Assembly: GCA_018396975.1 (NCBI GenBank)
Contig: JAGTQA010000015.1
Coordinates: 1 to 51,830 of the forward strand
From: Candidatus Bathyarchaeota archaeon
GTDB taxonomy: Archaea; Thermoproteota; Bathyarchaeia; Bathyarchaeales; DTEX01
Direction: 5' to 3'
Length of the DNA stretch: 51,830 nucleotides
Shown here piece by piece: positions 11,078 through 51,830 of the stretch. Made by a program: the position numbers and the translations under genes. Below the pieces are notes generated by a model, which ran no database searches, was not told the origin of the DNA, and was given only the letters and a program-made list of their open reading frames with translations. Numbering within the stretch: the first letter of the stretch is position 1; the number at the start of each line of letters is the position of its first letter.

Positions 11078-12138
11078 CCTGATGTTTCTTTTTGATTTCG
11101 GCTAAGCAGATTTTTTACACCTATCCATTGAGCTATTGCGTAGCCTACTAGGATCTGAAGCCAGAAGGTTATGATCCTAATAAGTAGTGTCGCGGTTCCG
11201 CTTAGGGCGATTGGGATCTTAAATAGCGTGTATAGGCTCGTCATAACTATCTCGACGAGACCTAGGGGGAGAGCTACCGGGATCGTTTGAACAGCTACGC
11301 TAATCGAATAGACTATGATGGTCTCATTTATTTTTTGGAGGATCTCACCGAAGCCTAGCGCATAAAATACTAGGAGATATATGCTCATATGTAAGAGCCA
11401 AGCAATGAAGTTGTAGGCTGCGGATCTTGTCAGTGCCCCCCAACTCCTACTGAAAATCTTAAATCCATCGTAGAAGTGCGCTAAATTCCGCTGCACTTTA
11501 TCCCTAAGATCTAATGGGTTTATCCGGCCCCTAAATATGAAGGCTATAGCCTTTATGGGCAAGCCGAGCAATCTCTCAACCGCCCCCTCCTTAAGGGACA
11601 AGTAGATTAGAGAGGCTATTAGAAAGATGGAGCCTAATAGGACGGCTAGTAAAAGGCTTAGGGCTTCGGTGCTAACCTTATATTTTAGGATTATTAGGGC
11701 TGAGGCAAATATTAGGCTGCCCAATGTTATAGACGTCGTTATTATTCGATGGGCAACGACTGATGCAATAATTTTTCCAGAGGAGACTCTGGTCTCCCTA
11801 TGGACAAGGTATATTCTCGTGATCTCCCCGGAAACGCTCTCCAATGGGATGACTAGGTCCACAAATATTCCAACCCAGGAATAAAAGAGCGCATTCCTTA
11901 CGCTAAGGTTTATTGAGAGAGCCTTCATGAGTTCCCTCCAGCTCATCGAGTAAAAGAGCATGCTCAGTATCATGGCCATGATTGTTATGGAATAATAGAG
12001 GAGATATTCGCGTGGATCAACACTTTTAAATACTCCAATTATCTCCTCAAAACCCACAAAAAAGTGTAGGTATAAGATGAAGATTATTAATCCGGCTGCT
12101 AAGGATACTATTAATTTAATCGGCGAAGACTTTTTCAT
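11074..12138 (-). CDS. UPF0104 / flippase-like (LPG synthase TM-type) membrane protein
   Basis: About 8 predicted TM helices with family-like N-terminal organisation. It overlaps the downstream nuclease-fold gene by 4 nt. Confidence 0.5.
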   Translation of the reverse strand: MKKSSPIKLIVSLAAGLIIFILYLHFFVGFEEIIGVFKSVDPREYLLYYSITIMAMILSMLFYSMSWRELMKALSINLSVRNALFYSWVGIFVDLVIPLESVSGEITRIYLVHRETRVSSGKIIASVVAHRIITTSITLGSLIFASALIILKYKVSTEALSLLLAVLLGSIFLIASLIYLSLKEGAVERLLGLPIKAIAFIFRGRINPLDLRDKVQRNLAHFYDGFKIFSRSWGALTRSAAYNFIAWLLHMSIYLLVFYALGFGEILQKINETIIVYSISVAVQTIPVALPLGLVEIVMTSLYTLFKIPIALSGTATLLIRIITFWLQILVGYAIAQWIGVKNLLSRNQKETSG

Positions 12139-16773: not shown

Positions 16774-18495
16774 ATGGAGTCTCTTATAAACTCATGCTTG
16801 GGTTTAACTCCTCTGGACTTGCTGATTTCAGGCAGGATAGTTGATGTTTATGGTGGAAGTATTTTTGATGGCTATGTTGGTGTTAGGGGCGGCTTAATAG
16901 TGTATGTTGGAGTTAAGCCTAAACCCTCTAGGGAGTCTTTAATTTTACCCTCAAGCTATGTTCTGCCAGCATACATTGATGGGCACATTCATATTGAGAG
17001 TTCGCTCATGACGCCCAGCTCCTTCGCTAGAGCCGTTATTCCGCATGGAACATGCTGTGTTGTGGCGGATCCACACGAGATTGCAAACGTTTTAGGCCTA
17101 GATGGAATAAAATTTATGATTGAGGACGCTAGGAGAACCCCGCTTAAATTCTACTTTATGATCCCCTCGTGTGTCCCATCAACAAATCTTGAGACGTCTG
17201 GAGCTGAGATAGGCTTAAGGGAGATAGAGGCGCTCAAGGGCTTTAAAAATATTCTAGGTTTAGGTGAGGTCATGAACTATAAGGGTGTGGTGATGGGTGA
17301 CAAACAAATTCTAGATAAGATAGGGGCTTGCAGGGGGATGATTATTGACGGGCACGCTCCGGGCTTAAGGGATGAAGAATTATGCGCGTATATCTTAGCC
17401 GGGATAGGCTCAGATCACGAGGTAATAAGCCTAGAAGAGGCAAGGGAGAAAATAACTCTTGGAATGTGGATTATGATACGTGAGGGCTCAACAACTAAGG
17501 CCATTTCAAATCTCATTAGGGTTGTTTCTAGAGGTTGTCCTGAGAGGGCTATGCTCGTAACCGATGATAAGCATGCTGGCGACATAATCCGTGAGGGCCA
17601 CATAGACCACTGCTTAAGGAGGGCTGTTGAGGAAGGACTAGACCCAATAGACGCCATTAGAATGGTCACTATTAAGCCGGCGGAATACTTTAGACTATCA
17701 AATTTAGGGGGTCTATCACCTGGAAAGGCAGCGGACATAGTTATCGTGGATGACTTAAGGAGTTTTAGGGCTAAGATTGTTCTAATAGATGGTAGGATTG
17801 TGGCTAAGGACGGAAAGTATCTGGGCGATGAGACTGGGAGACCGTCAAAGATCACCCTAGGATCAGTTAATTTTAAACCCTTACATCTAGAGGATCTGCG
17901 CATAAAACATCCGAGCATAAATGATGGCAGGGCAACTGTTAGGGTTATTGGCTTAATTAAAGATCAGATTATCACTGAAGAGATTCGGTGCGAGATGAGT
18001 GTTATTAATGGTGAGGTTAATCCCGATCCAGATAGGGACATACTTAAGATATGTGTTATTGAGAGACATAAGACATCGGGTAGGATTGGAAAGGGTTTCG
18101 TGAAGGGTTTCGGCCTCAAGAGTGGTGCGATAGCCTCAACAGTTGCCCACGACTCACATAACATTATTGCTGTGGGCGCCAGCGATCTAAGCATGTATAG
18201 GGCCATTATGAGGATTAAGGAGATAAATGGGGGATTCGTCATAGTTGATGGTGGAAGGGTTATTGGGGAGCTTCCTCTTCCAGTGGCCGGTTTAATGACC
18301 ACATTAGATGCTGAGGATATAGCGAGAAGAATGGAGAGGCTTGAGGAGGAGACTTCTAGGCTCGGATGCAAAATTAGGAATCCCTTTATGGCTCTCTCGT
18401 TTCTCTCGCTGCCAGTCGTTCCAAAGCTTAAGATTACCGATTACGGGCTCATTGACGCTGAGAGACTTGAGATTGTCAGCCCATTTATTGATTGA
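16774..18495 (+). CDS. ade: adenine deaminase
   Basis: Amidohydrolase motif YIDGHIHIESS, ~570 aa length and C-terminal domain typical of Ade. Start at the internal Met of ORF 16744..18495. Confidence 0.85.
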   Translation: MESLINSCLGLTPLDLLISGRIVDVYGGSIFDGYVGVRGGLIVYVGVKPKPSRESLILPSSYVLPAYIDGHIHIESSLMTPSSFARAVIPHGTCCVVADPHEIANVLGLDGIKFMIEDARRTPLKFYFMIPSCVPSTNLETSGAEIGLREIEALKGFKNILGLGEVMNYKGVVMGDKQILDKIGACRGMIIDGHAPGLRDEELCAYILAGIGSDHEVISLEEAREKITLGMWIMIREGSTTKAISNLIRVVSRGCPERAMLVTDDKHAGDIIREGHIDHCLRRAVEEGLDPIDAIRMVTIKPAEYFRLSNLGGLSPGKAADIVIVDDLRSFRAKIVLIDGRIVAKDGKYLGDETGRPSKITLGSVNFKPLHLEDLRIKHPSINDGRATVRVIGLIKDQIITEEIRCEMSVINGEVNPDPDRDILKICVIERHKTSGRIGKGFVKGFGLKSGAIASTVAHDSHNIIAVGASDLSMYRAIMRIKEINGGFVIVDGGRVIGELPLPVAGLMTTLDAEDIARRMERLEEETSRLGCKIRNPFMALSFLSLPVVPKLKITDYGLIDAERLEIVSPFID

Positions 18496-50597: not shown

Positions 50598-50826
50598 ATG
50601 CAAGAGATTAAAGCCCCATGGAACATAAAACGGGAGCTACTGACAAAGTCCGAGGACGAAACGGATCCAAAGTATGGATATAAGCCCGAAGAACGTCCAT
50701 ATCCGGACATAATAAGGTTCGGCATAATAAACTTGGATAAGCCTCCAGGCCCCTCGAGCCACGAGGTTACAGCGTGGATTAAGCGCATACTTAGTATTAA
50801 TCATGCTGGTCACGGAGGGACCTTAG
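50598..50826 (+). CDS. cbf5: Cbf5 (H/ACA tRNA/rRNA pseudouridine synthase) exon 1
   Basis: Ends ...HAGHGGTL + G of the Asp codon. The unspliced frame runs into TAA at 50844. Confidence 0.85.
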
Positions 50827-50863
50827 AGCCCATAGCAGTATCTTAAGGGCTATGGGCGTGGAA
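50827..50863 (+). other. bulge-helix-bulge (BHB) intron within the cbf5 coding sequence (37 nt)
   Basis: Helix A GGGA(50817-20)/TCCC(50865-68). Central helix CCTT(50821-24)/GTGG(50858-61). Bulges AGA (50825-27) and AAA (50862-64). Inner 9-bp helix GCCCATAGC/GCTATGGGC. Removal restores GGTL-D-PKVTGILPVALEEA in frame (229+764 nt = 331 codons). Confidence 0.8.
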
Positions 50864-51627
50864 ATCCCAAGGTGACCGGTATCCTACCTGTAGCCCTAGA
50901 GGAGGCAACAAAAGTTATACAGGCGCTGCTAAAGGCTGGTAAAGAGTATGTTGGCGTAATGAAACTCCACGGTGACGTGTCCGAGGAGCGGATTAAGGAG
51001 GTTTTCAGCGAGTTTAAGGGCAAGATTTATCAGAAACCCCCGCTCAGGGCATCTGTCAAGAGGGCTATACGCGTAAGGTCAATCTATTACCTAGATATGT
51101 TAGAGATTGATGGTAGAAATATCCTCTTTAAGGTTGGATGCGAGGCTGGAACATATATTAGGAAGCTTGTTCATGATATAGGTAAAGTTCTAGGCTGCGG
51201 CGCACACATGCATGAGCTCCGCAGAATTAGGGCTGGCCCCTTCATTGAGGACGAAAGCACGGTCACCCTACACGATGTACTATACCTCTACGAGAGGTGG
51301 CGTGAGACTGGCGACATAAGAATGCTTAGAAGGTTCATACTGCCAATGGAGAGGGCCCTTAACCTACTACCAAAGGTCTTTATTAGGGACTCCGCCGTGG
51401 ACGCTATATGCCACGGCGCGCACCTAACGGCCCCGGGCATAACTCATGTTGAGTCTGGAATAAATCCAACAGATACTGTCGCCATACTCACCCTTAAAGG
51501 TGAGGCAGTAGCATTGGGAACAGCTGTAGCCAGCACCGAAGAGATGCTCAAAGCCACGCATGGAATAATGGTTAAGACAGAGAGGGTCCTAATGCCAAGG
51601 GGGACATACCCAAAACTCTGGCGATAA
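50864..51627 (+). CDS. cbf5: Cbf5 exon 2
   Basis: Begins with AT of the Asp codon, then PKVTGILPVALEEATK ... and a PUA domain at the C-terminus. Confidence 0.85.
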
Positions 51628-51689
51628 AAATCAAACAACTTAAATAGCCTAGAAAATTTTATAGAAGATTGAGAGCCGGGGTCTCCTAG

Positions 51690-51714
51690 AGCCCAATAAG
51701 AAAGAGGCGGGAAA
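51690..51714 (+). other. tRNA-Ser intron 1 (D-loop, 25 nt)
   Basis: Central helix TCCT(51684-87)/GGGA(51709-12), bulges AGA(51688-90) and AAT(51713-15), inner helix GCC/GGC. The outer helix is not contiguous (relaxed BHB). Confidence 0.6.
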
Positions 51715-51729
51715 TCCGGTAGGGAGCAG

Positions 51730-51755
51730 ATTACAACAAGCAAACGTAAGCTTAA
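51730..51755 (+). other. tRNA-Ser intron 2 (position 29/30, 26 nt)
   Basis: Canonical hBHBh'. Outer helix AGG(51721-23)/CCT(51757-59), central helix GAGC(51724-27)/GCTT(51750-53), bulges AGA(51728-30) and AAG(51754-56), inner helix TTAC/GTAA. Confidence 0.75.
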
Positions 51756-51763
51756 GCCTGGAG

Positions 51764-51778
51764 ACAGAAAAGCCGAAT
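51764..51778 (+). other. tRNA-Ser intron 3 (canonical 37/38, 15 nt)
   Basis: Bulges AGA(51762-64) and ATA(51777-79). The central helix CTGG/CCGA forms 3 of 4 pairs. The outer helix is the anticodon stem and the inner helix is minimal. Confidence 0.55.
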
Positions 51779-51830
51779 AGCCTGTGGCCCACTCTGGGCC
51801 GCGTGGGTTCAAATCCCACCCCCGGCGCCA

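Follow-up and report, generated by a model that had tools for sequence, protein, structure and literature searches.

A tRNA-Ser(GGA) gene with three predicted bulge-helix-bulge introns downstream of cbf5 in a thermophilic Bathyarchaeia archaeon

Gene structure and spliced product

The window analysed here is the whole of a 51,830-nt stretch of DNA from a Candidatus Bathyarchaeota archaeon (contig JAGTQA010000015.1 of assembly GCA_018396975.1). Its last 156 nt, at positions 51675-51830 of the forward strand, contain a complete gene for transfer RNA (tRNA)-Ser(GGA), which is divided into four exons and three introns and encodes both G73 and the CCA end. Judged from its sequence and that of its orthologues, this locus is very probably a functional tRNA-Ser(GGA) gene of a thermophilic member of the Bathyarchaeia, with three introns of the bulge-helix-bulge (BHB) type. 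Unless stated otherwise, all features described below lie on the forward strand.

The two strands of the acceptor stem, GCCGGGG (51675-51681) and CCCCGGC (51820-51826), pair perfectly and are followed by G73 (51827) and CCA (51828-51830), at which the window ends. Deletion of positions 51690-51714, 51730-51755 and 51764-51778 shortens the gene from 156 to 90 nt, and the 90-nt product folds into a cloverleaf that ARAGORN recognizes as tRNA-Ser(gga). This product has U8, A14, G18G19, the anticodon stem CAGGC/GCCUG, the anticodon loop CUGGAGA and the T loop UUCAAAU. It also displays the features of a class II serine tRNA, namely the anticodon GGA (51760-51762), the G at position 73, and a long variable arm (UGGCCCACUCUGGGCCGC) with a stem of 5-6 bp that covaries between orthologues. 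The acceptor pair, G73, CCA and spliced-product features named in the original prediction, an earlier reading of this DNA, all match the window sequence. Its assignment to Ser(GGA) is borne out by ARAGORN on the 90-nt product and on 30 spliced orthologues, and its three introns, with their lengths (25, 26 and 15 nt) and positions, are recovered by a motif scan, a local fold and the orthologues.

Exon 1 (51675-51689) comprises the 5' strand of the acceptor stem, U8 and C9, the 5' strand of the D stem (UCCU), A14 and G15; in the related loci L015, L038, L039 and L087-L106 it runs straight into exon 2. In the window, the two exons are separated by intron 1 (51690-51714), which consists of 25 nt inserted in the D loop at position 15/16. 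Exon 2 (51715-51729) holds the remainder of the D loop (UCCGGUA), the 3' strand of the D stem (GGGA), G26 and the anticodon-stem nucleotides C27-G29. Intron 2 (51730-51755, 26 nt) follows at position 29/30. Exon 3 (51756-51763) supplies G30, C31 and the anticodon-loop positions 32-37 (CUGGAG), including the anticodon. Intron 3 (51764-51778, 15 nt) sits at the canonical position 37/38 and is absent in L027 and L029. Its boundary is ambiguous by 1 nt (there is an A on either side), and the product is identical both ways. Exon 4 (51779-51830) contains A38, GCCUG, the long variable arm, the T arm (GUGGG-UUCAAAU-CCCAC), the 3' strand of the acceptor stem, G73 and CCA.

A probable archaeal promoter, with a B recognition element (BRE) and TATA box reading CAAACAAC-TTAAATAG, is located at 51632-51647 and ends 28 nt upstream of the mature 5' end. 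Close relatives (L007-L021) keep this promoter-like element at equal distance while the spacer around it varies, with a conserved CAAACAAY-TTAAATAG about 28-35 nt upstream of the gene, which is consistent with a role in transcription. A sigma-70 promoter scan is inapplicable to archaea.

The neighbouring L14e protein is unchanged on 15 contigs. Six other contigs of the same species were examined for the 156-nt tRNA gene, and all six carry it in identical form.

Motifs at the three splice junctions

Splice sites were assigned by the rule that the endonuclease cuts between the second and third nucleotides of the 3-nt bulges that flank a 4-bp helix (PMC2738675), and were classed as strict hBHBh', relaxed HBh' or hBH motifs (PMC6379350). 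In what follows, ↓ marks the cut.

Intron 2 has a complete motif, with 4 bp in each of its helices: an outer helix UAGG/CCUG (AGG/CCU plus a U-G pair), a central helix GAGC/GCUU and an inner helix UUAC/GUAA, with the bulges AG↓A and AA↓G. It is the sole strict hBHBh' found in a brute-force scan of the 156 nt, and its BHB is the minimum-energy fold of the local 41-nt segment. The textbook hBHBh' motif that had been proposed at 29/30 is thus confirmed.

Intron 1 is assigned to the relaxed HBh' class because it lacks an exon-side helix. Here, the 5' strand of the D stem (UCCU, positions 10-13) pairs with GGGA at the 3' end of the intron to form the central helix, which is flanked by the bulges AG↓A and AA↓U and followed by the inner helix GCC/GGC, so that the three helices measure 0, 4 and 3 bp. 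The outer helix is absent in the gene of the window and in every orthologue. The original prediction had described a D-loop intron with the central helix UCCU/GGGA. That helix is present, and the site can now be refined to position 15/16, the class to HBh', and the motif to one that includes a 3-bp inner helix.

Intron 3 had been predicted to be short and relaxed, and so it is: with three of the four central pairs and an inner helix of 1 bp (bulges AG↓A and AU↓A), it is relaxed, and its class can be refined to hBH, similar to a bulge-helix-loop. Its outer helix is the 5-bp anticodon stem itself, which is complete only once intron 2 has been removed.

The motifs are not independent of each other. 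The outer helix of intron 2 (51721-51723/51757-51759 plus the U-G pair 51720/51760) shares nucleotides with the central helix of intron 3 (51758-51761), so that only one of these two motifs can form at a time. The BHBs of introns 1 and 2 can coexist, and neither can coexist with the D stem.

Intron states and exact junctions in relatives

Relatives were found with the C-terminal part of Cbf5, encoded directly upstream of the tRNA gene, in a scan of one genome per species. The nearest relatives are metagenome-assembled genomes of hot-spring Bathyarchaeia, the closest being JZ_bin_36.3 with 90% identity over this part of Cbf5, and the lineage is represented by metagenome-assembled genomes only. 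Lineages from Thermoplasmata to Bathyarchaeia have a tRNA-Ser(GGA) gene following cbf5, and the CCA is encoded in nearly all of the Bathyarchaeia copies.

The intron state of this syntenic gene differs among lineages. In Thermoplasmata the gene has no introns and is called tRNA-Ser(gga) directly by ARAGORN. Thermofilaceae, Hecatellales and some Bathyarchaeia have the 37/38 intron only. All three introns, at identical positions, are found in 25 species-level genomes in addition to the window. Other loci lack some of them: intron 1 is missing in L015, intron 3 in L027 and L029, and introns 1 and 2 in L038, L039 and L020.

Loci that lack introns offer a direct view of the junctions. In L015, L027, L029, L038 and L039 the missing introns are absent exactly at the predicted boundaries. 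L027 and L029 read continuously through the third junction (...CCUGGAGAGCCUG...), and L039 is continuous across the predicted junctions as UCUCCUAG-CCAGGUAGGGAGCAG-GCCUGGAG. A 33-nt stretch of the predicted product that spans junctions 1 and 2 also occurs uninterrupted in 20 JGI metagenome contigs. These contigs represent the chromosomes of other organisms, in which Cbf5 shows 66-69% identity to that of the window, and several have the order L14e, cbf5, a methyltransferase-like open reading frame (ORF) and tRNA-Ser. The junctions are thus verified by genomic homologues, both in the five loci above and in the 20 contigs. When the orthologues were spliced computationally, ARAGORN recognized tRNA-Ser(gga) in 30 of 30.

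In the close relative L020 (4817-4914; Cbf5 80% identical), the tRNA-Ser(GGA) gene is the same in its 3' half, and the D arm (GGCCGAGUGGAUUAAGGCG) and upstream region differ. It looks as if the 5' part of this gene was replaced via recombination with another tRNA-Ser gene. In a sister clade with the 37/38 intron only (L091, L096, L097, L101 and L105), a methyltransferase-like ORF of ~206 aa separates cbf5 from tRNA-Ser, and the tRNA gene is followed by a Cdc48-like ATPase.

Conservation and covariation

Among the 26 three-intron genes, mean pairwise identity is 93.5% in the exons, and 70%, 58% and 50% in introns 1, 2 and 3, respectively. Covariation was counted in alignments anchored at the splice sites, with 500 shuffles and slid registers as controls.

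For intron 1, based on 20 distinct orthologous junctions, 93% of the cells are paired and 10 double-sided changes occur. None of the 500 shuffles reaches the observed value, and the slid registers yield at most 57% paired cells. For intron 2, 87% of the cells are paired across 28 orthologues, again with 0 of 500 shuffles at the observed value and at most 48% in slid registers. Double-sided changes were counted in 25 cells of intron 2, and they affect all four of its inner-helix pairs. Pairing in intron 3 declines from 100% in the outer helix to 74% in the central and 58% in the inner helix, with eight double-sided cells. In this case 22 of the 500 shuffles reach the observed value, and slid registers give at most 46%.

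These patterns point strongly to upkeep of the motifs in evolution for introns 1 and 2, and weakly for the inner helix of intron 3. On these alignments, the recurrence of the architecture in 25 other species-level genomes, together with covariation, is far beyond chance.

Detection by tRNA gene finders

Neither ARAGORN nor the Rfam tRNA model finds a tRNA in the unspliced locus at 51675-51830, and the Rfam models for tmRNA and mascRNA match only the T arm of the gene. With a relaxed score and intron options, ARAGORN reads the same 156 nt as a tRNA-His(gtg) with a 74-nt intron, i(35,74). Similar errors occur in relatives. Without intron mode, ARAGORN calls the single-intron tRNA-Ser(GGA) orthologues L046, L068 and L073 tRNA-Gly(tcc) or tRNA-Thr(ggt), and does not detect others at all. 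The earlier statement that such genes escape gene finders or are given a wrong identity is hence reproduced both at the window locus and in intron-bearing orthologues. Since tRNA-Ser(GGA) seems absent with ARAGORN- or Rfam-type tools, estimates of the completeness and codon capacity of these Bathyarchaeia genomes are distorted.

Proposed order of splicing

We propose that transcription from the BRE/TATA promoter, ~30 nt upstream, would yield a precursor of ~160 nt. The 5' half of this precursor could not form a cloverleaf, as the 5' strand of the D stem (UCCU) would pair with GGGA at the 3' end of intron 1, while the 3' strand of the D stem and positions 26-29 would pair with the 3' end of intron 2 and positions 30-33. 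Two BHB sites would thereby be presented, the relaxed HBh' at 15/16 and the strict hBHBh' at 29/30. An archaeal splicing endonuclease would cut each 3-nt bulge between its second and third nucleotides, and a ligase of the RtcB type would join the exons.

Overlap between the BHBs at 29/30 and 37/38 implies that splicing would be ordered. Removal of intron 2 would allow the anticodon stem to form, and this stem would close the relaxed hBH site of the 37/38 intron. Introns 1 and 2 would then be removed first and intron 3 last, because the anticodon stem forms only after removal of intron 2. The outcome would be a class II tRNA of 90 nt that carries a long variable arm, G73 and a gene-encoded CCA. 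For archaeal introns that lie close together, removal in a set order is accepted (PMC8450103).

Alternative explanations

Several observations weigh against a functional three-intron gene. The minimum-energy fold of the whole precursor contains the site of intron 1 and misses the BHB of intron 2, at a z-score of only -1.7. Two of the three splice sites are relaxed, so that a broad-specificity endonuclease has to be assumed, either (alpha-beta)2 with a crenarchaeal loop or epsilon2 (PMC6379350). No endonuclease or RtcB genes were detected by Pfam scans of the ~39 ORFs of the window or in 650 kb of window and related loci, and tblastn with an approximate M. jannaschii EndA query gave no match in the same 650 kb. 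Our view of the genome spans 52 kb, which leaves room for an intron-free tRNA-Ser(GGA) elsewhere that does the work and makes the present gene spliceable but redundant. The intron history discussed below is read from a neighbour-joining tree of a single gene, Cbf5.

Redundancy of this kind appears very unlikely to us. Hot-spring metagenomes do contain intron-poor forms whose exons are identical, but these come from other organisms (Cbf5 66-69% identical) and occupy the same cbf5-linked locus, and are therefore orthologues rather than second copies. Moreover, the constraint on exons and helices in 25 species seems too strong for a redundant copy. Still less probable is a decaying tRNA pseudogene that was disrupted by three insertions and makes no functional tRNA. 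Such a pseudogene could explain why standard detectors see no tRNA and why two of the three splice motifs are imperfect. It does not fit with exons that remain 93.5% identical while the inserts diverge to 50-70%, with inserts at identical sites in 26 genomes that show compensatory helix changes, with a conserved promoter element upstream, or with the clean tRNA-Ser(gga) obtained from every spliced version. Other boundaries and another identity, such as the tRNA-His(GUG) with one 74-nt intron that permissive ARAGORN places on exactly 51675-51830, can be given almost no weight. Without exception, the syntenic orthologues that have no intron or a single one are Ser(GGA) and possess a long variable arm, the junctions of the three-intron model are uninterrupted in relatives, and conserved BHB motifs emerge from this model only. 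A functional tRNA-Ser(GGA) gene with three BHB introns hence remains by far the best explanation of the locus.

The cbf5 intron and the origin of introns 1 and 2

Upstream of the tRNA gene lies cbf5 (50598-51627), which encodes the H/ACA pseudouridine synthase (Pfam DKCLD, TruB_N and PUA) and serves as the synteny anchor. Its coding sequence consists of 50598-50826 and 50864-51627, separated by a 37-nt BHB intron (50827-50863). The intron has a strict BHB in the catalytic Asp codon (G↓AU), reading UUA G↓A...AA↓AU CCC. This is the published site in Desulfurococcales and Sulfolobales, between letters one and two of the Asp codon (PMC2738675), and the intron has been described as the sole mRNA intron of such kind known in crenarchaeota (PMC7714728). 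We found it in about 50 loci of Bathyarchaeia and Hecatellales (among L007-L054, L067, L078 and L082), with covariation between exon and intron in the central helix (CCUU/AAGG, CCCU/GGGG, CUCU/AGAG). Thermoplasmata, Asgard and some Bathyarchaeia loci lack it. Gene callers break intron-bearing cbf5 into two ORFs or omit the gene.

The presence of this intron only 0.85 kb upstream raises the question whether intron 1 arose by transposition of the cbf5 mRNA intron into a similar-looking D-loop site. Between intron 1 and the cbf5 intron, junction windows are on average 59% identical in the 26 genomes (maximum 73%), versus 30-42% for other pairs, and they share the reading ...CCYUAG↓AGCC...GGCG(G/U)GGAAA↓UCC.... 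The cbf5 intron is also the older of the two, being present in clades without intron 1, and transposition of introns between tRNA genes has been proposed for Thermoproteales (PMC4033280, PMC4090602). Most of the likeness, however, comes from similar exons that force similar pairing partners, and the bulges AGA and AAN are common to all introns here. The only unconstrained feature that the two introns share is the GCC...GGC closure of the inner helix, and in deeper members of the clade the cbf5 intron has GGC...GCC while intron 1 still has GCC...GGC. The introns are, in addition, too short for a homology test. All in all, we consider transposition from cbf5 to be unlikely. If true, it would go with a second, independent centre of BHB-intron spread in this Bathyarchaeia clade, and the case would be the earliest on record in Archaea of an intron passing between a protein-coding gene and a tRNA gene. 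A weaker corollary is more likely, namely that the cbf5 intron, which sits at the same codon as in Sulfolobales and Desulfurococcales, would be ancestral to a much larger part of the TACK archaea than thought; acquisition at the same site on two occasions would be the alternative.

The history of the introns was read from their distribution on the Cbf5 tree. The three-intron state fills one clade, whose sister clade has the 37/38 intron only, and the exceptions within the three-intron clade (L015, L020 and L027/L029) are scattered on the tree. The intron at 37/38 is old, and the simplest reading for introns 1 and 2 would be that both were gained once, at the base of a single clade of Bathyarchaeia, and that a few lineages have since lost them precisely.

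Flanking DNA and other features of the window

Downstream of the tRNA gene, the DNA is variable. Sequences diverge directly after the encoded CCA both between strains (L001 vs. L003, after position 11545) and between species. The ORFs that follow tRNA-Ser differ by species, with PIN-like, HNH-like and glycosidase examples. At the same time, identical downstream stretches are shared across different species, in L013 with L020 and in L003 with L018 and the metagenome locus L094. These findings suggest that the 3' end of tRNA-Ser, the intron-free part of the gene, is a hotspot for variable or mobile DNA. No integrase was found within a few kb downstream of tRNA-Ser, and the T-arm/acceptor sequence had no match in the viral contig collection.

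In some loci, fragments that resemble a T arm (GGGTTCGAATCCC, GGTTCAAATCTCC) stand directly after tRNA-Ser (L009 at about 2462-2495, L028, L034 and L097/L098). They may be remnants of the 3' halves of other tRNAs or of old attachment sites.

At the opposite end of the window, an intron-free tRNA-Gly(UCC) gene with encoded CCA occupies 18-95 on the reverse strand, with its 3' end 17 nt from the window end. Not every tRNA gene of the organism is thus interrupted. Both window ends are outward-facing 3' ends of tRNA genes, tRNA-Gly(UCC) on one side and tRNA-Ser(GGA) on the other. A provirus or mobile element at the window boundaries was considered and rejected, because by Pfam the ~39 ORFs are ordinary chromosomal genes, including MtrH, thymidylate kinase, a LysX/Arg cluster, TFB, S8e, SMC/ScpAB and EF-2. 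Contigs have a tendency to stop at the CCA. The L006 contig, like the window, ends exactly at CCA, and it is more likely that the window ends there because assemblies break at this point.

In a permissive Rfam scan of the window, no tRNA beyond the tRNA-Gly(UCC) and the T arm of tRNA-Ser came up. Outside the tRNA-Ser gene, a regex scan of the 650 kb of window and related loci revealed no further members of the families of intron 1 and intron 2. A weak match to the C/D box small RNA sR4 at 18291-18349, within an adenine deaminase ORF, scores 23 bits against a gathering threshold of 50 (E = 0.44) and is probably a chance match.

Comparison with known systems and significance

Multi-intron tRNA genes are established in Thermoproteales, where they contain up to three introns (PMC4033280, PMC4390854). 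Pre-tRNAs with three introns include the tRNA-Glu(UUC) of Pyrobaculum calidifontis and the tRNA-Pro(UGG) of P. islandicum (Sugahara et al. 2008, as cited in PMC4390854 and PMC4033280). The gene described here shares with these a strict or relaxed BHB for each intron, a predicted ordered removal and the failure of ordinary tRNA finders to detect it. It differs in its host, Bathyarchaeia, in the isoacceptor, Ser(GGA), and in the combination of positions 15/16, 29/30 and 37/38. Unlike the Thermoproteales cases, the same three introns appear to be stably inherited over about 25 species, with a traceable single gain and few precise losses.

Other systems resemble this gene in part. The Thaumarchaeota likewise represent a non-crenarchaeal TACK lineage with numerous non-canonical tRNA introns, for which a clade-specific BHB model was needed in tRNAscan-SE 2.0 (PMC8450103). 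The cbf5 pre-mRNA intron of Desulfurococcales and Sulfolobales (PMC2738675; Watanabe et al. 2002) has its splicing signal in common with the tRNA gene, and presumably the enzyme as well. However, it resides in an mRNA and has a strict hBHBh' motif with a long inner helix, whereas intron 1 of the tRNA lacks the exon-side helix. A eukaryotic tRNA gene with three ectopic BHB-type introns also has three in one gene, one of them in the D arm, but its host has a different endonuclease composition and it is unrelated by descent.

The literature that we searched contained no published link between Bathyarchaeota or Bathyarchaeia and tRNA introns or BHB motifs. The type of gene is known in archaea and the mechanism is not new; the new element is the Bathyarchaeia host. 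Our results extend multi-intron tRNA genes, at their known maximum of three introns, from Thermoproteales to uncultured thermophilic Bathyarchaeia. They also reveal a clean natural series, in which one syntenic locus occurs with 0, 1, 2 or 3 introns and identical exons. This series would be useful for studying the gain of non-canonical BHB introns, two at once at the base of a clade, and their precise loss, as well as the order of splicing dictated by relaxed motifs and by BHBs that overlap. Endonucleases of the (alpha-beta)2 or epsilon2 type are required for relaxed HBh' and hBH motifs (PMC6379350), and our interpretation predicts that these archaea have a splicing endonuclease of broad specificity.

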